A program made the position numbers and the translations under genes. Of a DNA stretch of 62,528 bases, positions 4,718 to 47,230 are shown piece by piece. The notes below the pieces were generated by a model. That model had not been told where the DNA came from and did no database searches. It worked only from the letters and a program-made list of their open reading frames with translations. Every line of letters begins with the position of its first letter. Positions within the stretch are counted from its first letter, which is position 1. Origin of the DNA: Fidelibacterota bacterium (lineage in GTDB: Bacteria; Fidelibacterota; Marinisomatia; SCGC-AAA003-L08; D37C17); assembly GCA_002719095.1 (NCBI GenBank), contig PBGO01000024.1:1-62528 (forward strand), written 5' to 3'.

Positions 4718-4801
4718 TGCTGAAGGCGGGACTTGAACCCGCACGAGATTTCTCTCACTGCCCCCTCAAGACAGCGTGTCTACCAGTTCCACCACTTCAG
4801 C
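4718..4801 (-). tRNA. tRNA-Leu (anticodon GAG)
   Basis: Reverse complement: GCTGAAG TG GTGG..AGACAC.. CTGTC-TTGAGGG-GGCAG, long variable arm, GCGGG-TTCAAGT-CCCGC, CTTCAGC-A. It folds as an 84-nt class II cloverleaf. Confidence 0.9.
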
Positions 4802-15869: not shown

Positions 15870-15911
15870 AACTTTCTTTAATATAAATAAAAAAGATAAT
15901 AAATTAAACAG

Positions 15912-15988
15912 ATGTTAGGGGTGCTTAAATGCTGAGATTATACCCTATTAATTAACCTGAACTAGATAATGCTAGCGGAGGAAAACAT
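15912..15988 (+). promoter_or_regulatory. TPP (thiamine pyrophosphate) riboswitch, THI-box
   Basis: AGGGGTGCttaaatGCTGAGAttatACCCtattaattAACCTGAactaGATAATGCtAGCGGAGG matches the conserved THI-box blocks GGGGUGC, CUGAGA, ACCC and AACCUGAUCUGGAUAAUGCCAGCG. A putative P1 helix pairs ATGTT (15912-16) with AACAT (15984-88). It overlaps the first two bases of the start codon and follows the GGAGG Shine-Dalgarno sequence. Confidence 0.85.
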
Positions 15989-18401
15989 GAAAAATAATCC
16001 AATTTTTTTAATCCTATTGAGTTCTTTAGCTTTTACACAAACTTTTCAACTAGTTGATGAAAGTAACTACCCTATTACATATGCTCAAATATATAATACA
16101 AATCTTGGAATAGGATCAATTTCAGATGCTGATGGATATTTTACCATATCCTACGAAAAGTGCATCGAACTAAATATTGACTATATTGGATTTCAAAAAA
16201 AAATAATCAATACTTGTAGAGCATCAGATATTATAAGATTAATTAAATCACCACTCCCATCAAGAGAAATATCTGTTATCGGCGATTTAGGTAACTCAAA
16301 GCTCAAAAACCTCATATCAGATGTTCAATTATTTTCCAAAAATGATATTGTAAATTCAAATAAAGAAGATTTATCAGATGTCTTAAAATCATCAACAAAC
16401 CTTGCGTATTCTTCATTACATTCAAGAGTAAAATACTTTCAAATTAGAGGTATTGGCGAAATAGAACAGTTTGTCGGTCAAGCAGGTCCAAATTATTATG
16501 TAGGGACTATGATAGATGAAGTGAACCTAAGTGGTATAGGTATGCCAATTTTCTTACATGATGTTGAGCAAGTTGAAATATTTAAAGGCCCTCAATCTTT
16601 TACTGTTGGACAAAACGCTATGGCAGGATTAATAAGAGTTAATACCATTGATCCAAAAGCATTTTTTGAAAGTAAATTCAGTATAGATGTTGGTAATTAT
16701 GGTAAAAATAACTTGACTTTTATGCTCAATCAGCCATTAAATGCTAATACTGCTTTACGAGTTTCAGTTGCTAAAAATAAAGACGATGGGTTCATCTTTA
16801 ATAACTATTATGGTAAGTACTTGAATGGAAAGAATGAATTAATTTCTAATTTTAAAGTTAAATACAATAAAGCTCTTAGTTCAGGAAATTTATTCTCTTT
16901 CTCAGCAATGAGCATGCATTCAGACCTAGATAATGGTAATGATAAATGGAGTCATTCTAATTTTAATGAACTTGATGTAACAAATTTTGAAACCGATACA
17001 GATTTCATCGGGCGTGATACTTTTTTGGGTAAATCAAACATTATAAAAGGAACATTTGTTGATAATAAAAATTTCCAAAAGATTAATCTTATTTTTACTA
17101 AATCAAAATATGACTTAAACTACGATTATGATGGGGATTGGTCAAATGAAAGTCATTGGAATGATTTGTATACAAATCCATTGAGCGAAAGTTATAGTGA
17201 AAATGCTTATTCATATTGGGCATTCCCAACATTCGAATCAAGATCAAGGCATGATAACAGCATGGAATTTAAATTGTCTAAATCATTTAAAAAGCATAAC
17301 CTCATTTTTGGTATTTTCAAAAAAGAAATTACTGAACGTGATATTGGGACTGGATTTATCTTTGATTTAGGTGTTGGTTACGTTGATAATTACAAAACGA
17401 GATATTCAACTGATTATAATTCCTTTTACATACAACACACTTTATCATTAGATGATGAAAAATCACTAACACTCAATTTTAGAAATGATGATTATAATAA
17501 TGAGTTTGATTACAACTATACCTACTATGATAATAATTCATATTTAACAAGTGAATACAAAACCGATGGTCAGGTTTATAAATATTCAAATTCTATACAA
17601 AGTTTTAGAATCGGTACAAATATAGATAATTTTTATTTTTCGGTCAGCAAAGGTCATAAAGCTGGAGGAATGAATTTAAGTCCATCTTCTCTAGTCACTG
17701 CTAATAATGATACAGTAACAGTTCTTAATAATATTGATCGAAAATATGATCCTGAGACAAATATAAATTATGATATTGGTTATTCATTAAATTTTAATAA
17801 TCTAAATCTAAATCTTACTTTATTTTACATGGATAGAAAAAATGTTCAGGTAAAACTTCAAGATCAAATTGGAGATTGTCCAACATGTTACTTATTCATA
17901 ACAAAAAATATAACAGAAGCTATTAATACTGGTATTGATTTAGAATCAAGCTACAGACTTAATTCTAATTTTTTAATGTTTTTAAACTTAGGCTTGTTAG
18001 AAACTGAAAGAGCAAATTATTCGCATACAAACTATGCTGGAACAACGAATTATTATCTTAAAAGAGAGCTCTCTAATGCTCCAAAATGGAGTTTAGCAAC
18101 TGGTTTTGAATACAGTTTAAATGATTTATTTTTTTTGAGATATGATATATCTTCAAAAGATTCATACTATTACTACGATGATTTAAATGATAAGTCTTCA
18201 GTTACAACAACTCACAATATCAATTCTAGGTACATTATAGATGAAAATATTAATCTGACAATCTGGGTTAAAAATCTAACAAATAAAGTTTATCCTGCTC
18301 ATATATATAATTTTTCTCATGGTCCAGGACTTGAAGCACAGCAATGGAAATCTCCAACATTACCCATGACCTACGGTTTAAAAATAGATTATAAATTTTG
18401 A
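15987..18401 (+). CDS. TonB-dependent outer-membrane receptor (with N-terminal carboxypeptidase-regulatory-like domain)
   Basis: The signal peptide is MKNNPIFLILLSSLAFTQ. A plug-like region and about 22 amphipathic strands follow, and the C-terminus is TYGLKIDYKF (terminal Phe). I place the start at ATG 15987, 5 nt after GGAGG. The track ATG at 15969 lies inside the riboswitch. Confidence 0.8.
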   Translation: MKNNPIFLILLSSLAFTQTFQLVDESNYPITYAQIYNTNLGIGSISDADGYFTISYEKCIELNIDYIGFQKKIINTCRASDIIRLIKSPLPSREISVIGDLGNSKLKNLISDVQLFSKNDIVNSNKEDLSDVLKSSTNLAYSSLHSRVKYFQIRGIGEIEQFVGQAGPNYYVGTMIDEVNLSGIGMPIFLHDVEQVEIFKGPQSFTVGQNAMAGLIRVNTIDPKAFFESKFSIDVGNYGKNNLTFMLNQPLNANTALRVSVAKNKDDGFIFNNYYGKYLNGKNELISNFKVKYNKALSSGNLFSFSAMSMHSDLDNGNDKWSHSNFNELDVTNFETDTDFIGRDTFLGKSNIIKGTFVDNKNFQKINLIFTKSKYDLNYDYDGDWSNESHWNDLYTNPLSESYSENAYSYWAFPTFESRSRHDNSMEFKLSKSFKKHNLIFGIFKKEITERDIGTGFIFDLGVGYVDNYKTRYSTDYNSFYIQHTLSLDDEKSLTLNFRNDDYNNEFDYNYTYYDNNSYLTSEYKTDGQVYKYSNSIQSFRIGTNIDNFYFSVSKGHKAGGMNLSPSSLVTANNDTVTVLNNIDRKYDPETNINYDIGYSLNFNNLNLNLTLFYMDRKNVQVKLQDQIGDCPTCYLFITKNITEAINTGIDLESSYRLNSNFLMFLNLGLLETERANYSHTNYAGTTNYYLKRELSNAPKWSLATGFEYSLNDLFFLRYDISSKDSYYYYDDLNDKSSVTTTHNINSRYIIDENINLTIWVKNLTNKVYPAHIYNFSHGPGLEAQQWKSPTLPMTYGLKIDYKF

Positions 18402-27383: not shown

Positions 27384-27457
27384 TGGTCAGTACTGGATTC
27401 GAACCAGTGACCTCCACGATGTCAACGTGGCACTCTAACCAACTGAGCTAACCGACC
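27384..27457 (-). tRNA. tRNA-Val (anticodon GAC)
   Basis: Reverse complement: GGTCGGT TAGCTCAGTTGGTTAGAGT GCCACG-TTGACAT-CGTGG AGGTC ACTGG-TTCGAAT-CCAGT ACTGACC-A. It is 74 nt, and CCA is not encoded. Confidence 0.9.
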
Positions 27458-33508: not shown

Positions 33509-34381
33509 TTATATTTTATCACTAATATTATTTTTATTTCTTTTAAATGTAAAATAACCTATCAATACTAAAATTACTACTATCATAGCACCGAAAGTTC
33601 CATAATAATAATCTTGAGTACTATATTTTATCAAATCATCAAACCTACCTATCAACAAAGAGATTCTTCCCATAACAGTAAACCCAAAAGAAGCACCGAA
33701 CGAAATCATGAGAAAATAAATACCTACTTTACTCACCTTACCTAAAGCCCCTTCATGCTTTTTCGAGAAGAAAAAATATACCAATGCACTAATAGTTCCA
33801 ACAATTAAAATTGTACTATTTAAAAAAGCAGAAAAACTTTCTAAAGACATGTCATTCTGAACACCTATAACTTGAGCTAATATATCTGAATTCAAATAAC
33901 TGAAAGCTCTCAAACCTGCAAATACGCCTACAATGTAAGCAATTGAATATCTTGCTAACCATGACAGGGAAGGTATTAACCTAAATAACATAAGCATTCC
34001 AAGTATGAGGGGGATTATGTAGCTAAAATATATTTTAGGTTCTGAAGGAGAAACATCTATTCCACCTGGAGATATCAAAGAAGGCTCTAAATAGCCAAAT
34101 AAAGTAGTGACATTAAAACCTAAATTATAAATTCCATACCATATATCAACTATAATGCTTGAATCACTTGAATCTGGCAACTTTGGCCATAGTTTGCCGA
34201 TTAAACTCGGTCTCAAAAATTGCCAATAAGCAAGAACTACTCCATAACCCGCCGAAACGCCAGCAAATAAATGTTCTGCAGCCTTATATAGTGGATTATC
34301 ATTGAATAAAAAACTAAGTATTGATAAAGTCAAAAAAGCTGATATCCATGCTGTGAGTATATCTGAACCAATCATTGTCAT
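33509..34381 (-). CDS. Unknown polytopic membrane protein (cluster member 7)
   Basis: 290 aa with about 7 hydrophobic segments. It overlaps the upstream gene by 4 nt. I recognise no family motif. Confidence 0.55.
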
Positions 34382-35217
34382 TTACTACCGTCCCTGGCAT
34401 TAAGGAATATGTACGTTATATTTCCTATAATTATTAGGATTACAATTAATATGTGTGCAAAGGATTGTGGTGTCATATTTTTTGAAGCAGGACCATAAAC
34501 TCCATTAAGACTTTCATAACTCGCAGCTCCTGATAACCCAGCTAATATTCCTTGAAGCTGACCACTATTTACATATGGTAAAAGCTCAGTTACTTGAACT
34601 GCTGTTACACCAGTTGTAACTTTAATTTTTTTCCCATCACACTGTGTTGCACTCTGGTCTCCAGCAAATTGAACCCATTCTTTCGATCCAGGACTTCCGG
34701 CTGAAAAAGATACAATGAAGTCATAATCACATAAATTTTTAACTTTATTTTTTGCTTCAGGAAAAATCTTTGGAATATCTGAAAGCATACCTTTGATAAC
34801 TGCTTCTCCACCAGGTGCGTATCCAAGCTCAAAAATATTCTCATTTAAATTTATACCCAAGTCTTGCAATTCTGAATCGGACTTGATTTTATTAATTGTT
34901 TGAGTCATCATACCCATACCTGTTGGAAAAAGAGCTGATAAATGTACTTCGTTTCCTGATAACAAAACTTGTTTCATTATAGCAAATGACATTGGTCCCA
35001 ATTCAGGTTCGGTACTTGGTCCATAATCAAATGAAAGGAGTATTTTTTTATCTTTTTCATTAAATGTTTTTTCAATAGCTTTGTGAGCTGTTGCTGCATA
35101 TTCATCTGGTTCAATTGGTAATTGAATTTCTAAAAGCATAGGTGAAATGACTGCAACTGCTAAAAGCAAGTAGATTATTCGACTATCAATATTATTTAAA
35201 ATTTTTAATATATTCAT
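34378..35217 (-). CDS. Unknown bitopic protein: N-terminal TM, roughly 220-aa soluble domain, C-terminal TM (cluster member 6)
   Basis: The TM segments are IIYLLLAVAVISPML and HILIVILIIIGNITYIFL. The middle domain is hydrophilic. Confidence 0.55.
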   Translation of the reverse strand: MNILKILNNIDSRIIYLLLAVAVISPMLLEIQLPIEPDEYAATAHKAIEKTFNEKDKKILLSFDYGPSTEPELGPMSFAIMKQVLLSGNEVHLSALFPTGMGMMTQTINKIKSDSELQDLGINLNENIFELGYAPGGEAVIKGMLSDIPKIFPEAKNKVKNLCDYDFIVSFSAGSPGSKEWVQFAGDQSATQCDGKKIKVTTGVTAVQVTELLPYVNSGQLQGILAGLSGAASYESLNGVYGPASKNMTPQSFAHILIVILIIIGNITYIFLNARDGSK

Positions 35218-36021
35218 TTAATCGCCTAAAAATGATTTATCTTTTCCAAAAATTATTCTCAATGATGTTGCTACTATACCAAGGGCAACACCAATCATAA
35301 TAGCTTTCTTTCCCGCTACTGTTGGATAAGCAATTATCCACAAGGATATAGACTTTGAGCTCAATTCAGGGCTCCAAAAAAACATAGAAAAGCCTGAAAT
35401 AATTATTGTAATAATAAAAGATTTAATCAAAATATCTTTTGAAGTAAAAATGGGAGATAAGAACGCAAAAATTAGTGAAATTATAATGAAAACAAACATC
35501 CACGAGGGAATATATGATCCTACTGGAACTGCTCCAATCATGACTAATACACCAGCTGTTAGCAAAAGAGATGCTTCAAAGTTTCTAATCCTAAAAGCCC
35601 TGTAAGAAGCAGATGCAACAAAAAAAGCTAATAATGCAAACATTGTAGCGTCTAATGGTTTAAATAATGAATCAAACATCCAAGTGAAAAGTGAATTTGG
35701 ATCCTGTATGTGCTCTCCCCAGTTCTTTTGATTACCATTACCTCTGTACAAAAATCCAGAGAAAATCATTAGACCAAACCCTACAAGAAGTATCATACTG
35801 TATCCATAATCTGATTTTTTATAAACTAATTTGGTAAAATGCATTTTCAATAAATTAAAAGCACCTAAAAATATTGCAAATGCGGCTATAATATCGAACC
35901 ATAATAGTGAATCTTGTTCAACCCAATCTCCAACTGATTCAATTTTTATAAAATGTGCTATTAGTGTCAGTAACCCTATACTAACCATTATAATTACGGG
36001 AAGTTGACGTTTAAAAAACAT
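35218..36021 (-). CDS. Unknown polytopic membrane protein (cluster member 5)
   Basis: 267 aa with about 7-8 hydrophobic segments. It shares a loose ..YRAF/LRAF.. segment with member 7, so the two may be distant paralogues (weak). Confidence 0.55.
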   Translation of the reverse strand: MFFKRQLPVIIMVSIGLLTLIAHFIKIESVGDWVEQDSLLWFDIIAAFAIFLGAFNLLKMHFTKLVYKKSDYGYSMILLVGFGLMIFSGFLYRGNGNQKNWGEHIQDPNSLFTWMFDSLFKPLDATMFALLAFFVASASYRAFRIRNFEASLLLTAGVLVMIGAVPVGSYIPSWMFVFIIISLIFAFLSPIFTSKDILIKSFIITIIISGFSMFFWSPELSSKSISLWIIAYPTVAGKKAIMIGVALGIVATSLRIIFGKDKSFLGD

Positions 36022-36868
36022 ATATGCCCCAATAAGATAAAACTTTAAGTATCGAAAGTAATATTATAGAGATAATTATAATAAATTTGACTAAATCTTG
36101 TCCACGTACACTCCCCAGTAAGTCTTTCCTACCTGAAAGAATTGCACTGGCTGTTAAAAATTCTTCACCGATTAGCGTGTAGTCGCAGGCAGTTACAAAA
36201 AAAGGTATCTGGGATGAGGAACCTGTACCTGCTATTTGAATTGCACCAATTCTGTTTCCAGTTTCAGCTAATAATAGAGATTCTGCATAAAACTTACCTT
36301 GATAGATACATGCGGCGGGTTTCTCTCTTATCATTATTCCATTTATTCCAGCAGCATATGCAAATTGATCCTCTGCTAAATAATGCACCATGTCATTGTG
36401 ATAAAGATCTGGCCTACCCACTTGTAAATATGATTCCTTACAGATTTCTCGCGCTGCTTCCATCACGATTGATTTTGAAACGGGTACATTAAGATCTGTT
36501 TCATATTCGGCAGTAATTTTTGCTACATGCCCAAGAATATTAATACCCGCAATTGTTTCAACTTCATTCAAATCAAGTATTCCAGGAACAAACAATACTG
36601 GCTTTCCCATTTCTGTAGCTCTGCCAACAGCTTCTTCCATAGCTTTGATTCCGGCAATTTCCCTAATGAAAATCTCATTTCCAGACTCGGCCCAAAAGAC
36701 AGAAGTCATAAGTATATTTGAAACAACTATTAACAAAAAAAACATCGGCATATTATCTGATTTAAAAATCATATTTATCCAGTATATATCCAATATAAAA
36801 AACAAAGATATCAAAATACTTAAGGCAAAAGTTATCTGAACTTTTGAATTTCTAATCAGTTCAGTCAT
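36011..36868 (-). CDS. Unknown membrane protein: two N-terminal TMs, roughly 190-aa soluble domain, C-terminal TM (cluster member 4)
   Basis: The soluble core is REIAGIKAMEEAVGRATEMGKPVLFVPGILD...IQIAGTGSSSQIPFFVTACDYTLIGEEF. The start is set at MTELIRN, an 8-nt overlap with member 3. Confidence 0.55.
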   Translation of the reverse strand: MTELIRNSKVQITFALSILISLFFILDIYWINMIFKSDNMPMFFLLIVVSNILMTSVFWAESGNEIFIREIAGIKAMEEAVGRATEMGKPVLFVPGILDLNEVETIAGINILGHVAKITAEYETDLNVPVSKSIVMEAAREICKESYLQVGRPDLYHNDMVHYLAEDQFAYAAGINGIMIREKPAACIYQGKFYAESLLLAETGNRIGAIQIAGTGSSSQIPFFVTACDYTLIGEEFLTASAILSGRKDLLGSVRGQDLVKFIIIISIILLSILKVLSYWGIYVF

Positions 36869-37118
36869 TTTCAGAGCTCTCAATTTTAGTAATGAAATTT
36901 TCAACGTTATTTCGATCGGATAATAATTTTGATATCTGATAATATTTTTTCGAATTTAGAAAAATAGTAGCAAGTGGGCCCGCAACAATCATTGCCTGAC
37001 TAAAAGTAAAAGAAAGATATTTAAACATTTCAAGAAAAAAAACAGCTGGGACAGACATTCCTTTATCTTTAATTGTTTTTGCATAAGAATTCATAATATC
37101 AATATTATCGTTTTTCAT
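36861..37118 (-). CDS. Unknown small 2-TM protein (cluster member 3)
   Basis: 85 aa with hydrophobic VPAVFFLEMFKYLSFTFSQAMIVAGPLATIFL. Its start abuts the member 2 stop. Confidence 0.5.
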   Translation of the reverse strand: MKNDNIDIMNSYAKTIKDKGMSVPAVFFLEMFKYLSFTFSQAMIVAGPLATIFLNSKKYYQISKLLSDRNNVENFITKIESSEND

Positions 37119-38216
37119 CTAGTCTAATATTATCTCTAGATTAGCCCTTGGAACAAGCTTTCTTTCATTATTATCGAACTCTACTTCAGCAATTCTTGCT
37201 TTAGTTTCAGATTCTATCATAACCGGTTCAGATGGCAATTTCATAACTATACCTATTTTTCCAAAATAAGGTTCTCTAATGACTCTAACATTTGAGCCTT
37301 CCTTGATCACTAAGTCATTCTCATCAAAAGACTTAATGAAGTCTTTTTTATTTGGTGACGGTATTATTACTTCAGGGCGAATTACTCCTGCCCTAATTTG
37401 CGTAGCCCCATTTATTGATACTTTTGATTTATTATATTTTTTTAACAACTCAAAGGTTTTGGAAGACATCTCTACATCACCAAAACCTTCTGTAATTACT
37501 AATGTTGTCGAAATATTCTCAGTGCCCGTAATTGCAACCCCTAACCTATATCCCAAAATATCGCTCAATGATTTATAATCAAAACCACCAGCAACGACAC
37601 CTAACGCTCCTTTTCTTGATAATGAGTCGTACTTTTTTTTATTTATAGAACCTCTTATCACAACTATCTTTCCTTCAAAATCTTCAGATACTTGATCGTC
37701 CAAGAAAAGTAATTCACCCTTTTTTTCACCGCCGACTCCTATGATTCCTTGGACGAGACATCCTTCTGACCTGACAACTACACCTTCATTATTAATAATT
37801 TCTTTGATTTCTCCATCAATATAAGCATCAATCTCAATTGGAATATCAGGTTCAGATATCATAATTTGACCTGTTGTTGTTGAAATATTTGATATTTTAC
37901 CCTCAATAGGGCTTTTTACCTGTGTCTTAAAAAATCCAAATAGACCTTTATTTTCAGCTATCACTTCATCTTTTTTTACATGCTGATTAATTTTAACAAT
38001 TAAGTAATCTTTTAATGACGAAGCATCTATATTGAGTTGACTTGCAATATTAATCATATGAATGTTTCCAGGTAATTTAGTTGATGCAACAATAGTATCA
38101 TTATTTACAAAATCGCCTTTATTGCAATTAATATCTCCTTTTAATGGAAGTTTGCGTTCCCTTTCGATTTCTGTGTTATTTAAGATTTTTAATCCAGGTG
38201 TGTATGATTTAGCCAT
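37119..38216 (-). CDS. Unknown soluble protein with barrel-sandwich-hybrid-like segments and a C-terminal KOW-like motif (cluster member 2)
   Basis: Two segments have the lipoyl/biotinyl-like pattern GDxVxxxxxIA...P-G-x-I (GDFVNNDTIVASTKLPGNIHMI; VKKDEVIAENKG..VKSPIEGKISNI) but lack a Lys attachment motif. The C-terminus KEGSNVRVIREPYFGKIGIVMKL...AEVEF resembles a KOW motif. Confidence 0.55.
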   Translation of the reverse strand: MAKSYTPGLKILNNTEIERERKLPLKGDINCNKGDFVNNDTIVASTKLPGNIHMINIASQLNIDASSLKDYLIVKINQHVKKDEVIAENKGLFGFFKTQVKSPIEGKISNISTTTGQIMISEPDIPIEIDAYIDGEIKEIINNEGVVVRSEGCLVQGIIGVGGEKKGELLFLDDQVSEDFEGKIVVIRGSINKKKYDSLSRKGALGVVAGGFDYKSLSDILGYRLGVAITGTENISTTLVITEGFGDVEMSSKTFELLKKYNKSKVSINGATQIRAGVIRPEVIIPSPNKKDFIKSFDENDLVIKEGSNVRVIREPYFGKIGIVMKLPSEPVMIESETKARIAEVEFDNNERKLVPRANLEIILD

Positions 38217-38217
38217 T

Positions 38218-40059
38218 TTATAGATTTATCTTTTTTGTTATGTTATTAGATTTAGAATCAAAATTTAGAACTTTTACTTCATCGTACCATTCTTTGAGCT
38301 TTTCTTTATTTGGAATAATAAGTTGATTGTTAGATTGTCTGAGTCTACCGTCAAAAAGAATTCCAACCTCTCCTCCAAAAATATCAGTATGAATTTTTTG
38401 CCCATAACCATTTCCTAAATCAACATCATTTTTTGGAGTTAATGTAATCTTTACCGCTTCGTATTTAACTGGTATCAGCTTAAGCTCATTAGACTTAATT
38501 AAACCAGAGTATTTTTTATTTTCATAATTAAACTCATACTCAAATAGATTAAAATTACCTGATTTACGTTTTGATATTGGATTGACAGAAGAACCTAGCC
38601 TAACCAAACAATCCCGTTCAAACACTTCTAATGCTGCATTAGTATGAATACTTGACAAGACACCTAATTGAGGCATCATAAAAATAGAATCAACAGCTAT
38701 TTGAGTTATACCAAGTGGCTTAAAGGAATCAACCATCATTAGAAAAGATTGACTTCTTCGCGGCGCGTGAGATAAAACACCTCCAGAACCAACAATTAAG
38801 TCAAGTTCAAACATATCTACAAGAGTTTTACCGGAAGCACTTTGTCTAAAAGCATCAGATATTGTTCTTTCTTGTTGCACCCCTTTCAAAGAAACAGCAA
38901 ACTGCTTATGTTGATAAAATGATAGACTCAGTGCTTCTCGAGCCAAAGATTGCTCAATGATTAGTTCTTCCATACTCTGTGGAATTGTTGTGGGCCTAAT
39001 CATTTTATTTGCAACACGATTTGTTAAATCTATATCATCAATTTCAAAAGGAAGCCATCTAGCAATAGAATCATATCCCGACTCTGCTAAAACATTGCAT
39101 ATAGAATAACTCATTCCAAGATTTGCGCTAACTGTTCTGTTAAAAATCCCTTTAAAAACAGAAAAAACATCTGTAGTAGCTCCTCCAATATCGACCCCTA
39201 CTACCGAAATTTTATTTTCCGTTGCAATCTGCTTAATTATCTCTCCTACAGCTCCAGGTGTTGGCATAATTGGAGCATCTGTCCAACTCATTAATTTTTC
39301 ATAGCCAGGCGCTTGAGCCATTACATGCTCCATGAATAAGTCATGTATTTTATCTCTGCTGGGCTGCAAATTTTCTTTTTCAAGCGTAGGACGTATATTA
39401 TCGACAATTTGAAGATCGGTATTTTTTTCTAATTTATCTTTGATTTCATTTCTAGCATTTTTATTCCCTGCATATATAATTGGAATTTTAAATTCTAACC
39501 CAAGTCTTGGCTTGGGGTTTGCTGACTCTAATACCTCTGCAAGCTTGACAACATGAGAAATTGTACCTCCATCAATTCCTCCAGATAACAAAATCATATC
39601 TGGACGTAGATCACGTATTCTTTTAACTTTTTCATGGAATAATCGTCTGTCATTTGAAGCTAATACATCCATTACAATTGAACCTGCACCAAGTGCTGCC
39701 CTTTGAGCGCTCTCAGCAGTCATCGATTTAACAACTCCAGCAACCATCATTTGAAGCCCACCTCCAGCTGAACTTGTAGATATATAAATATCAATTCCTA
39801 AATCATCTTCTAATGATGGGGTAATAATTTTATTTTTATCTAAAATTTTTATCCCTGATAACTCTTCAAGCTCAATAATTGAGTTGATTACCCCTTTAGT
39901 GACATCCTCAAAAGGTTCTTCAACAGTTGTTGGCGCTTCACCTCTGTGGGTAAGTTGAAAAATACCATCAATCTTTTGAATTAAAATAGCTTTTGTGGTT
40001 GTTGAACCACAGTCAGTAGCTAAAATAGATTTAATATTTTTTATATCTTTTACTTTCAT
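38218..40059 (-). CDS. GlmL/MutL-like actin-fold (ASKHA) ATPase with roughly 130-aa C-terminal extension (cluster member 1)
   Basis: The phosphate-1 motif is ILATDCGSTTTKAILI. SSAGGGLQMMVAG, PDMILLSGGIDGG, IIYAGNK and the phosphate-2 motif VVGVDIGGATTDVFSV follow. This order matches the glutamate-mutase component-L family as I recall it. Confidence 0.7.
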   Translation of the reverse strand: MKVKDIKNIKSILATDCGSTTTKAILIQKIDGIFQLTHRGEAPTTVEEPFEDVTKGVINSIIELEELSGIKILDKNKIITPSLEDDLGIDIYISTSSAGGGLQMMVAGVVKSMTAESAQRAALGAGSIVMDVLASNDRRLFHEKVKRIRDLRPDMILLSGGIDGGTISHVVKLAEVLESANPKPRLGLEFKIPIIYAGNKNARNEIKDKLEKNTDLQIVDNIRPTLEKENLQPSRDKIHDLFMEHVMAQAPGYEKLMSWTDAPIMPTPGAVGEIIKQIATENKISVVGVDIGGATTDVFSVFKGIFNRTVSANLGMSYSICNVLAESGYDSIARWLPFEIDDIDLTNRVANKMIRPTTIPQSMEELIIEQSLAREALSLSFYQHKQFAVSLKGVQQERTISDAFRQSASGKTLVDMFELDLIVGSGGVLSHAPRRSQSFLMMVDSFKPLGITQIAVDSIFMMPQLGVLSSIHTNAALEVFERDCLVRLGSSVNPISKRKSGNFNLFEYEFNYENKKYSGLIKSNELKLIPVKYEAVKITLTPKNDVDLGNGYGQKIHTDIFGGEVGILFDGRLRQSNNQLIIPNKEKLKEWYDEVKVLNFDSKSNNITKKINL

Positions 40060-42253: not shown

Positions 42254-42469
42254 CTACCTATTTAAACTATCCATTTTTTCACACCAAATCAAATAGTTCC
42301 AAATATCATTAAATGTTCTGAAAGGATGCTTTATAGCATACCTCCATCCGCCAGGGTAAGCTGTTTCTAATCGCCAAAATAGATATTCTGAAGACCATGA
42401 CCTCATTTTCCATAAAATTTTTATCATTTTCACTATTTTATTGATACTCATTTCATTCTCTGTTTTCAA
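42254..42469 (-). CDS. Hypothetical small Trp-rich protein
   Basis: 71 aa. It overlaps the upstream TPR gene by 17 nt. I recognise no motif. Confidence 0.35.
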   Translation of the reverse strand: MKTENEMSINKIVKMIKILWKMRSWSSEYLFWRLETAYPGGWRYAIKHPFRTFNDIWNYLIWCEKMDSLNR

Positions 42470-44567
42470 AATGATTATTTAACTCGTCTAATAACGTATT
42501 TTTTCTAACTAATTCATCAAGATTAATTTTTTTTAGAGGATTGTCAAAAAAAACCATATTTGTATCAACAAATTCAAAATTAATATTTTCGTAATTGTAC
42601 TTGCTTGTGTAATTATTTAATACCCACTTAGATTGATTAATATACAATGAAGAGTCGTAATCTTCTATTAGGTATTTAAATTTTTGAATACCAGCATCTT
42701 TGTTGTCAAAGTCAAAAAAATCTATTTCTGCCATATGATAAACCACTGAGTCACTATTTAAATTTTTATTTTCTAATAAATTATTATAATCATTCAGTTT
42801 CTTAATTAAATGCGATATTGCTGGATATATTTGCTCAGTTCTTCTTACTTCAATGGATTGAATTAAAGTTTTAGCAGAATCATAATTATTTTCCGCAATC
42901 ATTTTAAATGTGCTGTTAAGAAGAATTTTTTGACTATTCAATCTTTTGAGATCGATAATATTATTTTTAATATCTATTAATCTGTTATTTATAAATTCTA
43001 TAGATGGATGATTTGGAATTGAATCTTGAATCTTTAAATATATTGGTATTGCTTCATTTAAATCATAATTATAAAAATCACTTATGTATGCATAATTAAA
43101 TAATGAAATAGAATCGGCATATTCTAAATACATATCTTTATAAAATTTCAATTTCGAATCATTTGTTTTGAGATTAAAAACCTCGTTTCTTATAGTAGTT
43201 AAACTATCTATATTTTGCTGTAAAGAGTTTGAGGTCTCCAATTTGAAACCATCATTGTGGTAAGATAAAATATTATTAATTTGTTTTTTATACTTAGTAT
43301 CTGGGAACTTTAAAAGTAGATGCTCGTATCTAAAAAGCGCAGAGTCTATTTGATTAAAATCAAAATAAAAAATTTGTCCCATACTGAATAACAAAGAGTC
43401 TAGTTTTATTTCTGCTGGTTGGGGAATTGACATGTTCATTTCATTTTTTAAAGGTAAATCGTCAATAGTATTTTTTTGATAAAAAAAGTAATCCTCTTGC
43501 AAGCCTTCAAATTTGTCAATTTTTTCTTTTAAAAATCTTGCTTTCTTGGCATATTTTGACCTACTTCTTTCATCGATAGATTTGTCAATATATGTTTTTG
43601 CAAGCTCTAGATTATAATCTTCAAACAGAGATATTGTGGATAGTATATAATATGCTTCGGATGTTTCGTTTTTTTTTGAAAAATTGTCACATAAATCGTT
43701 AAGTACTTCAATAGCAAGATTAAGTCTATTGCTATCTTTGTACGCTCTAGCCTTGTAGATCAAAAGTTTAGGCTTAATCGATGAGTAATTGGGGTCCTCT
43801 ATTATATTATCAATATCTTGAATCACATCGTCAAATAGCTCCAATTTAATTTTGGATTCTATCCAATCAATTTTCAAATCTTTAATTTTGTTTAAGTCAT
43901 CTAAATTTTCGATTAAAAATTCTATGAATTTTATCTCCGATTCCGTATCCTCATTCTGTTCTGCTAATTTAATTAGTTTTCTTAGTGCAAAATTTTTCCT
44001 GGATTCTTTTGTGGTTGTTGTTGATGCAGATTGATAAAAATCATACGATTCTTGAAAACTTTCTTTATTTTCCATGATTTCAGCTTTAATTAAAAAATAT
44101 GTATACAAACTTTCCTTATCTAATTCAGATTCTTTAATCCTGTTTATATAGAAAAAAACTTTATCGTTATTTTTTAATCTCAAAAAGGAAAATGCAATAA
44201 ATAAATTTGCTTTAATGGAAATTTTAGAATCTGTTGATAAAATAGCTTTTTCTAAATTTTTGATTGATAATTCATACTGTTTTTGATAAAATAATGAAAT
44301 ACCTATTAATAAATGTGCCTTATCTATGTAATTACTATCAGGATATTTTTGAATTACAATTTTGGAATTTTCAATTGTTTTGTCAAGAAGAATTTGTGCT
44401 TCTGAAGGTATCTTAGAATCATCTAAAACTTGTGAATTTTCTATTATTTTTTGAGCAGATTCGAAAGACTTTTCAGCATTATAAAATGTGTTAAAATAGG
44501 CACATCTAAAGATTAGAACGAAAGCAAGTAAACTGAAAGATATTTTATTCAAAAATTTACTTTCCAT
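42453..44567 (-). CDS. Large TPR-like lipoprotein/anchored protein
   Basis: The ORF has an N-terminal hydrophobic segment ending in Cys (LIFRCAYFNTFYNAEKSF) and a BamD/YbgF-like block (IQKYPDSNYIDKAHLLIGISLFY). The architecture loosely recalls PorW/SprE-type T9SS lipoproteins, but I cannot confirm that. Confidence 0.5.
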   Translation of the reverse strand: MESKFLNKISFSLLAFVLIFRCAYFNTFYNAEKSFESAQKIIENSQVLDDSKIPSEAQILLDKTIENSKIVIQKYPDSNYIDKAHLLIGISLFYQKQYELSIKNLEKAILSTDSKISIKANLFIAFSFLRLKNNDKVFFYINRIKESELDKESLYTYFLIKAEIMENKESFQESYDFYQSASTTTTKESRKNFALRKLIKLAEQNEDTESEIKFIEFLIENLDDLNKIKDLKIDWIESKIKLELFDDVIQDIDNIIEDPNYSSIKPKLLIYKARAYKDSNRLNLAIEVLNDLCDNFSKKNETSEAYYILSTISLFEDYNLELAKTYIDKSIDERSRSKYAKKARFLKEKIDKFEGLQEDYFFYQKNTIDDLPLKNEMNMSIPQPAEIKLDSLLFSMGQIFYFDFNQIDSALFRYEHLLLKFPDTKYKKQINNILSYHNDGFKLETSNSLQQNIDSLTTIRNEVFNLKTNDSKLKFYKDMYLEYADSISLFNYAYISDFYNYDLNEAIPIYLKIQDSIPNHPSIEFINNRLIDIKNNIIDLKRLNSQKILLNSTFKMIAENNYDSAKTLIQSIEVRRTEQIYPAISHLIKKLNDYNNLLENKNLNSDSVVYHMAEIDFFDFDNKDAGIQKFKYLIEDYDSSLYINQSKWVLNNYTSKYNYENINFEFVDTNMVFFDNPLKKINLDELVRKNTLLDELNNHFENRE

Positions 44568-44589: not shown

Positions 44590-44676
44590 TACCGAGGGCC
44601 GGAATCGAACCGGCACGAACATGTAATGTTCGAGGGATTTTAAGTCCCTTGTGTCTACCAGTTTCACCACCTCGGC
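44590..44676 (-). tRNA. tRNA-Leu (anticodon TAA)
   Basis: Reverse complement: GCCGAGG TG GTGAAACTGGTAGACAC AAGGGA-CTTAAAA-TCCCT, long variable arm, GCCGG-TTCGATT-CCGGC CCTCGGT-A. 87 nt. Confidence 0.9.
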
Positions 44677-44684
44677 AGATCGCG

Positions 44685-44756
44685 AGGCGTCGACCAGATT
44701 CGAACTGGTGAATGATGGTTTTGCAAACCACTGCCTTACCACTTGGCTACGACGCC
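44685..44756 (-). tRNA. tRNA-Cys (anticodon GCA)
   Basis: Reverse complement: GGCGTCG TAGCCAAGTGGTAAGGC AGTGGT-TTGCAAA-ACCAT .. CCAGTTCGAATCTGG CGACGCC-T. The discriminator is U, as expected for Cys. Confidence 0.9.
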
Positions 44757-44761
44757 ACTCG

Positions 44762-44834
44762 AGCGAAAGAAGGGATTCGAACCCTCGACCCTCACGTTGG
44801 CAACGTGATGCTCTACCAGCTGAGCTACTTTCGC
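44762..44834 (-). tRNA. tRNA-Gly (anticodon GCC)
   Basis: Reverse complement: GCGAAAG TAGCTCAGCTGGTAGAGC A TCACG-TTGCCAA-CGTGA GGGTC GAGGG-TTCGAAT-CCCTT CTTTCGC-T. 73 nt. Confidence 0.9.
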
Positions 44835-47154: not shown

Positions 47155-47230
47155 GGGGATATAGCTCAGTTGGGAGAGCGCGTGAATGGCATTCACGAGG
47201 TCAGCGGTTCGATCCCGCTTATCTCCACCA
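47155..47230 (+). tRNA. tRNA-Ala (anticodon GGC)
   Basis: GGGGATA TAGCTCAGTTGGGAGAGC G CGTGA-ATGGCAT-TCACG AGGTC AGCGG-TTCGATC-CCGCT TATCTCC-A-CCA. The G3:U70 identity pair is present and CCA is encoded. Confidence 0.9.

Follow-up and report, generated by a model that had tools for sequence, protein, structure and literature searches.

A conserved two-module gene system with a MutL-family ATPase and DUF6754 membrane proteins in Marinimicrobia and other bacterial phyla

The locus and its conservation across phyla

The window analyzed here, a stretch of 62,528 nucleotides (contig PBGO01000024.1 of assembly GCA_002719095.1) with a GC content of ~30%, derives from a metagenome-assembled genome (MAG) of Candidatus Marinimicrobia (SAR406). 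Between positions 33509 and 40059 it carries seven consecutive open reading frames (ORFs) on the minus strand, numbered from g1 down to g7 (Table 1), which encode a MutL-family ATPase (g1), a soluble multi-domain protein (g2), a small protein (g3), a DUF6754 membrane protein (g4) and three further membrane proteins (g5 to g7). The seven genes almost certainly form a real, conserved system, and this unit consists of two modules, A (g3-g1-g2) and B (g4-g7).

The ORFs and their junctions were confirmed as described in the initial annotation of the window: from g1 to g7, successive genes are separated by 1 nucleotide, abut (0 nucleotides), overlap by 8 and by 11 nucleotides, abut again (0 nucleotides), and overlap by 4 nucleotides. 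The products are identical to the GenBank entries MBJ48595 (g1) to MBJ48589 (g7), of which the first is labelled 'methylaspartate mutase' and the other six 'hypothetical protein'. The length of g4 is counted from an ATG; an alternative TTG at 36904 would yield 297 residues. Likewise confirmed were the 4-nucleotide overlap of g1 with the stop of cdsA (CTP_transf_1) and the distance of 11 nucleotides between g7 and a lysine-catabolic aldehyde dehydrogenase (ALDH) gene, which is followed by a class-III aminotransferase gene. Translational coupling, put forward at first as a mark of the cluster, proved unspecific. In the window, 33 of 54 same-strand junctions are of 1 nucleotide or less (median 0), and such junctions are also found in the flanking pyrD/rlpA/cdsA and lat/methylase/tmk genes, the co-directional array being unbroken from pyrD to tmk (pyrD, rlpA and cdsA on one side of the cluster; Aldedh, Aminotran_3, TP_methylase and tmk on the other). 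Since tight junctions are the norm in the window, they are not diagnostic of the seven-gene cluster.

Table 1. Genes of the cluster, with coordinates in the window. TM, transmembrane segment; aa, amino acids.
Gene	Position	Strand	Product
g1	38218-40059	-	613-aa MutL-family actin-fold (ASKHA) ATPase with extra C-terminal domain of ~130 aa; putative energizing subunit
g2	37119-38216	-	365-aa soluble protein; N-terminal barrel-sandwich hybrid domains, central PA-like alpha/beta domain, C-terminal KOW/SH3-like barrel; putative adaptor
g3	36861-37118	-	85-aa protein of the ATPase module; one moderately hydrophobic conserved stretch and acidic C-terminal helix
g4	36011-36868	-	285-aa DUF6754 protein; two N-terminal TMs, ~200-aa alpha/beta domain (predicted cytoplasmic), C-terminal TM
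g5	35218-36021	-	267-aa polytopic protein; 6-TM core, ~8 TMs in the window lineage
g6	34378-35217	-	279-aa protein; N-terminal TM, ~220-aa domain predicted periplasmic, C-terminal TM
g7	33509-34381	-	290-aa polytopic protein; ~6-TM core

Homologous loci were collected with a DUF6754 alignment scan over one genome per GTDB species, in which at least 592 species matched, and the best 80 loci were analyzed; these are the loci most similar to the query and not a random sample, and their taxon labels were taken from the MAG records. The presence of genes was assessed by tblastn with the window proteins, and ORF families were obtained by all-against-all clustering. The loci come from Marinimicrobia/Fidelibacterota, Zixibacteria, Eisenbacteria, Gemmatimonadota, Planctomycetota (Phycisphaerae, Singulisphaera), Ignavibacteria, Acidobacteriota, Rifleibacteriota and Coatesbacteria, with a few further MAGs labelled Lentisphaeria, Deltaproteobacteria and Puniceispirillum. 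All of g4-g5-g6-g7 are present in 69 loci and all seven genes in 28. Of the 36 loci for which 16 kb or more of sequence was available, 22 have both g1 and g2 no further than 8 kb from g4. The order g5-g6-g7 follows 75 of 107 plus-strand copies of g4, the remainder being mostly contig ends or antisense and miscalled ORFs in high-GC genomes. In the clustering of all ORFs from the 80 loci, only the seven families recurred across phyla. Cross-phylum identity to the window proteins, taken from orthologues in non-Marinimicrobia-like loci, is highest for g1 (56-64%) and g4 (51-63%), followed by g2 (38-48%), g7 (34-51%), g5 (27-45%), g6 (27-38%) and g3 (23-40%).

The g3-g1-g2 module is found upstream, downstream or divergent relative to g4-g7, yet adjacent to it, and this proximity, which survives rearrangement, is good evidence of functional coupling. 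In 21 of the 80 loci, mainly of Zixibacteria and Ignavibacteria, g4-g7 are present two or more times, and as many as three complete sets stand in tandem; g1, g2 and g3 are single-copy even there. The initial annotation had treated the seven genes as a single unit. As a functional unit it is borne out by the cross-phylum synteny, but the unit actually comprises two modules, of which B is often multiplied or located apart. An explanation without any system, in which adjacency merely reflects a compact genome, can point to tight junctions throughout the genome and to the position of the cluster inside a long co-directional array of housekeeping genes. It is ruled out by the synteny, with co-occurrence across at least nine phyla despite rearranged module order: unrelated phyla with large, high-GC genomes show the same neighbors in the same order within each module, which leaves this explanation a vanishingly small probability. 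The cluster is also retained in the streamlined, ~30% GC genome of the window.

Features of the subunits

Among the seven proteins, only g1 and g4 passed a Pfam or NCBIfam threshold (MutL and DUF6754, respectively), and none was reached by g2, g3, g5, g6 or g7. Sequence and profile searches against the PDB gave nothing significant for any of g1-g7, none of the seven matched the PADLOC defence models, and in PHROGs only a weak actin-fold match in g1 was obtained. The earlier statement that members 2-7 belong to no characterized family is thus upheld, save for the uncharacterized DUF6754 family in g4, and the profile searches did not assign the set to any characterized complex.

The match of g1 to MutL (PF13941) covers the entire profile (positions 1-450 of 450; E 1e-125, 420.5 bits, threshold 27). 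The motifs DCGSTTTKA and DIGGATTDV are present, and 16 orthologues from several phyla share without variation the ASKHA phosphate-1, phosphate-2 and adenosine motifs (DCGSTTTK, DIGGATTD and GSGGVLSHAP). The best NCBIfam matches were GlmL (NF040745; 234.2 bits, cutoff 475) and Or-4 of the ornithine pathway (NF040744; 227.2 bits, cutoff 600), with TIGR01319 at 170.9 bits (cutoff 204). With GlmL/MutL and Or-4, g1 shares the full-length MutL match and the phosphate and adenosine motifs; it differs in reaching only about half of the equivalog cutoffs, in its length of 613 residues and in the extra C-terminal domain. Adjoining genes for mutase subunits (glmS/mutS, glmE/mutE), as expected for GlmL, are absent from the window and from the 80 loci, where g2 is always next. 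g1 thus belongs to Pfam MutL and fails as a GlmL by score cutoffs, by mutase neighbors and by length. As judged by sequence, it is a MutL/GlmL-family ATPase without a mutase partner, in agreement with its first description as an orphan GlmL-like ATPase, and we propose that it is active as an ATPase. The GenBank name 'methylaspartate mutase' (MBJ48595.1) looks like an over-transfer from GlmL, because no mutase subunits are encoded nearby; the label implies glutamate fermentation and may mislead metabolic reconstructions of SAR406. Further matches of g1 were a secondary one to Hydantoinase_A in Pfam (E 5.5e-5) and a weak one to a ParM-type partition protein in PHROGs (residues 270-321, covering the phosphate-2 region); a PDB relative was found neither by sequence search nor by profile search at E<=10. 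With the filament-forming actins MreB, ParM, FtsA and MamK, g1 shares fold-level motifs only.

The second protein of the ATPase module, g2, directly follows g1 in all loci that contain g1, and its N-terminus, M-x-x-S-Y-T-P-G-L, is invariant in orthologues. It shows a sub-threshold match to the RnfC_N barrel-sandwich family (E 1.8e-4, 21.9 bits versus 25.6) and scores 15.8 bits against TIGR01945 (cutoff 246). An AlphaFold2 model with a predicted local distance difference test (pLDDT) score of 85.9 was searched against the PDB with Foldseek and gave matches at the level of domains only, to domain II of Thermotoga maritima NusG, the PA domain of ZNRF3 and KOW/Tudor barrels. Query TM-scores did not exceed 0.18, so that g2 has no global structural relative; its first description as a barrel-sandwich and KOW protein agrees with the model and with the domain matches. 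The best match, T. maritima NusG (domain II plus KOW; E 4.8e-6), shares beta-barrel/sandwich modules and a terminal KOW barrel with g2, but has a query TM-score of 0.15; g2 lacks an NGN domain and is encoded among membrane proteins instead of in a transcription context. It is not NusG, RnfC or NqrA. One JGI record names a g2 homologue 'NusG'. A role as a biotin or lipoyl carrier was considered and rejected, as the barrel-sandwich motif is of the RnfC_N type and lacks the carrier-lysine hairpin (from reading of the sequence and general knowledge).

For g3, no family match was found in Pfam or NCBIfam. Two TMs had been proposed; this is unproven, as no segment passes the normal TM threshold in hydropathy analysis, and an alignment of 16 orthologues reveals a single conserved, moderately hydrophobic stretch of ~30 residues (VPAxFFLExxKxLSFxxSQxMxxxGP). 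Its gene lies downstream of g2 in Marinimicrobia but upstream of g1 in the other phyla.

The Pfam DUF6754 profile (PF20539) matches g4 over positions 5-248 of 257 (E 7e-109, 363.4 bits, threshold 27). DUF6754 is a catalogue entry only, without a described function. Hydropathy places TMs at residues 10-28, 42-60 and 259-277 of g4. Across 109 copies, paralogues included, the pairwise identity of the DUF6754 domain has a minimum of 49% and a median of 65%; many of its acidic and basic residues and one cysteine are invariant, and its secondary-structure pattern alternates between helix and strand. In a HMMER scan of 1.84 billion representative sequences, DUF6754 was found in 2225 clusters (50% identity) at E<=1e-3 and in 924 at E<=1e-30. 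In most of these the domain is C-terminal, behind an N-terminal extension of 100-720 residues. Six of ten long examples carry recognizable domains in this extension, either fibronectin-III (FN3) repeats or beta-propellers of the PQQ/BamB type, and in Ignavibacteria it begins like a signal peptide, followed by one TM. Individual paralogues extended in this way, with N-terminal FN3 repeats or PQQ/BamB-like propellers, are P0310, P0313, P0322 and P0405. As paralogues bear large extracytoplasmic inserts or extensions, the Marinimicrobia form, with its g4 of 285 residues, is a minimal, stripped-down version. g4 is the most conserved membrane subunit, and we propose it as the docking or transducing subunit.

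Several candidate features of g4 were rejected: an Fe-S cluster, since a single cysteine is conserved family-wide; a B12-binding DxHxxG motif, which is absent; and a Walker A motif in GRATEMGKP, where the spacing is wrong. No relationship between g4 and g6 was detectable with hhalign.

The remaining membrane proteins g5 and g7 (26 members each) and g6 (25 members) have no consistent Pfam match, and hhalign detected no paralogy between g5 and g7. By hydropathy, g5 has ~8 hydrophobic segments, g7 ~5-7 and g6 one at each end. This bears out the polytopic nature assigned to g5 and g7 in the initial annotation; the 7-8 TMs given there compare with ~8 in g5 and ~5-7 in g7. The soluble domain between terminal TMs, described for g4 and g6, also agrees with hydropathy, g4 having two TMs at its N-terminal end. 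In the alignments, g5 contains the invariant motif PLSATMFALLAFFVASASYRAFR and g7 the invariant motifs DNPxYKxxEH, YFFFSxEHxG and FGASFGxTVMxR; neither has a conserved cysteine. In g6, the C-terminal TM bears invariant Q, H and N residues, and basic residues border each TM on the side of the nearer protein terminus. A g5 paralogue in Ignavibacteria carries an FG-GAP propeller inserted into the loop between TM3 and TM4 (L061:12488-14266). The positive-inside rule, applied to the basic residues, and the sites at which propellers are inserted predict a cytoplasmic location for the DUF6754 domain and for the RAFRxR loop conserved in g5. By the same criteria, the domain of g6, the extensions of g4 and the insert of g5 would be periplasmic.

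Neighboring genes and other features

Genes next to the cluster give little guidance as to its substrate. A cross-phylum neighbor theme did not emerge from a guilt-by-association analysis of the 80 loci. The cdsA, rlpA, pyrD, ALDH and lat neighbors of the window were found only in loci L001-L029, mostly labelled Marinimicrobia/Fidelibacterota, and in no other phylum; their adjacency is thus lineage-limited and provides no general functional clue, and the functional link to cdsA or lat/ALDH7 suggested in the initial annotation is not supported. In some Marinimicrobia, g1-g7 are nested in an Opp/Dpp-type ABC operon with the order SBP_bac_5, two BPD_transp_1 permeases, g1-g7 and an ABC_tran/oligo_HPY ATPase (L081:2771-14756; also L082, L083, L002 and L003), and in two loci without adjacent permease genes an orphan Opp-type ATPase still adjoins g7 (L012, L024). 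In L042, of an unrelated lineage, a substrate-binding protein and two Opp-type ATPases are encoded just upstream of g4. Eisenbacteria-like loci are flanked by genes for an M28 peptidase, an S33-like hydrolase and an Orn/DAP decarboxylase, and other lineage-specific neighbors are a sugar transferase, metK and G6PD. Taken with the lat/ALDH genes of the window, these neighbors hint weakly at peptide or amino-acid use as a substrate theme, each association being confined to one lineage. Of the suggested role in amino-acid or lysine uptake or in envelope or lipid biology, the part built on cdsA and lat/ALDH7 is not supported as a general clue, and a weaker, lineage-limited link to Opp and peptidase genes exists.

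Two further families, c15 and c22, accompany the cluster in particular lineages. A possible eighth component (c15), of ~150-170 residues with two TMs and a small C-terminal domain with a faint bPH-like match, is often encoded directly before g3 in non-Marinimicrobia phyla (L025:6607-7110, L038:3791-4300, L074:3402-4127 and six others) and is absent from the window locus. A very basic protein of ~105 residues (c22), with the conserved sequence EARREYQRRYY...YNLTHKKK and no family match, is encoded at the end of the tandemly repeated membrane modules of Zixibacteria and Ignavibacteria (L061:16157-16474, L063:15182-15496, L046, L049 and L071). In a MAG labelled Singulisphaera sp. GP187, an ORF of 483 residues with a match to Porin_O_P (E 5e-8) is found between g2 and g4 (L080:6076-7527).

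A search with Rfam found no riboswitch near the cluster in the window or in eight of the loci. Elsewhere in the window, a thiamine pyrophosphate (TPP) riboswitch was identified at 15907-16000 (+) with 58.4 bits, above its gathering score; it overlaps the predicted start of an 810-residue ORF (15969-18401, +), so that the true start of this ORF is probably further downstream. The window contains six tRNA genes, at 44590-44834 (-), 27384-27457 (-), 47155-47227 (+) and 4718-4801 (-), three of which are tightly clustered directly upstream of an ORF of 704 residues (42453-44567). The product of this ORF is rich in repeat-like helical sequence and has no Pfam match.

A proposed machine and its alternatives

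The composition of the cluster agrees with its first characterization as a membrane machine rather than a metabolic operon. A literature search on DUF6754, PF13941 and the cluster returned nothing relevant; as it did not cover all journals, an earlier description is possible. On present evidence, the system is one without a described counterpart. Among known systems, it is comparable to ECF and ABC transporters and to mechanotransmitters such as FtsEX and LolCDE, which combine a shared cytoplasmic ATPase with membrane parts that are interchangeable or face the periplasm: here, one ATPase module would serve one to several paralogous membrane modules, with a conserved coupling surface in the cytoplasm and variable parts in the periplasm. 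In contrast to ABC and ECF systems, the seven genes encode no P-loop or ABC ATPase but an actin-fold protein as putative motor, and show no match to ABC, ECF, MacB-type or permease families; the resemblance is one of logic only. The Rnf and Nqr complexes are comparable through the RnfC_N-like segment of g2, which corresponds to the N-terminal domain of RnfC/NqrA, and through a superficially similar inventory of a peripheral barrel-sandwich protein, two ~6-TM proteins and one TM-anchored protein with a periplasmic domain. Motifs for Fe-S clusters, flavin or NADH and matches to the RnfA, D, E or G families are, however, absent from the seven proteins.

As our preferred, still tentative reading, we propose that the seven genes encode an envelope-spanning machine of two modules, an ATP-driven trans-envelope transporter or mechanotransducer with an actin-fold motor. 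Here we infer the physical assembly, the docking of subunits, the direction of work and the substrate. Module A would be cytoplasmic, with g1 as the ATPase and g2 as a multi-barrel adaptor between g1 and the membrane module. Module B would form an inner-membrane complex. Its invariant cytoplasmic face would be composed of the DUF6754 domain together with conserved loops of g5 and g7 on that side of the membrane; its periplasmic face, made up of the domain of g6, the extended N-termini of g4 and the inserts in g5 loops, would vary by lineage and paralogue. ATP hydrolysis by g1 would be transmitted via g2 and g3 to the DUF6754 domain, which would drive a conformational cycle in the membrane module, whereby a substrate in the periplasm or envelope could be moved or manipulated; g5 and g7 together with g6 would constitute the working membrane and periplasmic part. 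A single ATPase module might serve between one and at least three paralogues of the membrane module. Such a shared-motor logic is favored by the combination of an invariant inside, an intact ATPase and adaptor, variable periplasmic scaffolds of protein- or glycan-binding type, and a one-to-many relation of the modules.

Several points weigh against this proposal. The transport or mechanotransmission activity is a prediction by analogy, and we know of no primary transporter driven by an ASKHA ATPase. The membrane subunits showed no likeness to transporter families in Pfam and PDB searches, and the AlphaFold2 model of g4, built from a shallow alignment, has a pLDDT of only 60.7, with a poor soluble domain. 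In 14 of the 36 loci with sufficient sequence, g1-g2 are absent within 8 kb of module B, so that linkage of the modules is not obligatory and they might function separately. By established but untested annotation, MutL relatives are chaperones for B12 mutases and not motors. Finally, a receptor would equally account for a conserved cytoplasmic domain combined with extracytoplasmic domains that vary.

In a first alternative, a membrane-anchored enzyme complex, g1 would activate a small substrate with ATP, like its hydantoinase-A, oxoprolinase and acetone-carboxylase relatives, with DUF6754 as catalytic partner and g5-g7 delivering or removing the substrate or product; the substrate might be a lipid, a precursor of the envelope or a derivative of an amino acid. 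The secondary Hydantoinase_A match of g1 (E 5.5e-5) is consistent with this, as are the conservation of DUF6754 at the level of a catalytic core, with its invariant acidic and basic residues and one invariant cysteine, and the lineage-limited neighbors cdsA, lysine-catabolic genes, Orn/DAP decarboxylase and peptidases. However, no neighbor is common across phyla, a HyuB-like partner is absent, no cofactor or active-site motif was recognized, and tandem membrane modules with variable propeller and FN3 domains would be odd for a housekeeping enzyme; we regard it as unlikely. A chaperone or reactivase, in which g1, with g2, would reset or load a cofactor on the membrane-bound DUF6754 domain of g4, as proposed for GlmL, EutA and the diol-dehydratase reactivases, is less probable again. 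It would accord with the membership of g1 in the MutL family and the proximity to GlmL and Or-4 as nearest named families, with the helix/strand alternation of DUF6754, and with the match of the central g2 domain to PA domains, which share the swivelling beta/beta/alpha fold (SCOP) with the swivelling domain of reactivases. But neither a B12 enzyme nor a DxHxxG motif nor a cobalamin riboswitch was found in the window or in the eight tested loci, g1 scores below the GlmL equivalog cutoffs, the reactivase role of GlmL is itself not experimentally established, and g5-g7 and the periplasmic domains would be left unexplained.

Of similarly low probability, or slightly lower, is a signaling complex, in which the variable ectodomains (g6, the g4 N-termini and the g5 inserts) would respond to periplasmic ligands or to envelope state and DUF6754 would regulate an ATPase or kinase output of g1. 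Receptors typically combine a variable outside with an invariant inside, propellers and FN3 domains are frequent as ectodomains of bacterial sensors, and one cytoplasmic module is common to paralogous membrane modules; against it stand the absence of a conserved output or transmitter domain, DNA-binding protein or response regulator nearby, the two polytopic subunits and invariant intramembrane polar residues, which suggest a conduit or motor, and a degree of cross-phylum conservation rare in receptors. Polymerization of g1 into a cytoskeletal element, anchored to the membrane by g2-g7 and organizing the envelope or cell shape, we hold to be improbable. The actin fold of g1, its weak ParM-type PHROG match and its MreB-like level of cross-phylum identity (56-64%) are compatible with such a role, but the MutL family groups with hydantoinases instead of filament formers, polymerization of g1 is hypothetical, and multiplied membrane modules and periplasmic propellers would remain unexplained.

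In its boldest form, which we consider less likely than not, the proposed two-module machine would be the first primary-active trans-envelope machine to run on an ASKHA ATPase instead of a P-loop, P-type or rotary one, with periplasmic FN3 and propeller domains setting the substrate or partner; it would occur widely in FCB, PVC, Acidobacteriota and candidate phyla, and SAR406 would make it abundant in the ocean. In databases, its ATPase is labelled as a mutase and five of the other six proteins are 'hypothetical'. If the proposal is true, a highly conserved multi-subunit membrane system has been overlooked in hundreds of species of many little-studied phyla, including a lineage that ranks among the most abundant of the deep ocean; it would introduce a new energizing principle, an actin-fold ATPase coupled to membrane work, and would assign a role to DUF6754 as well as to four families below any Pfam threshold.

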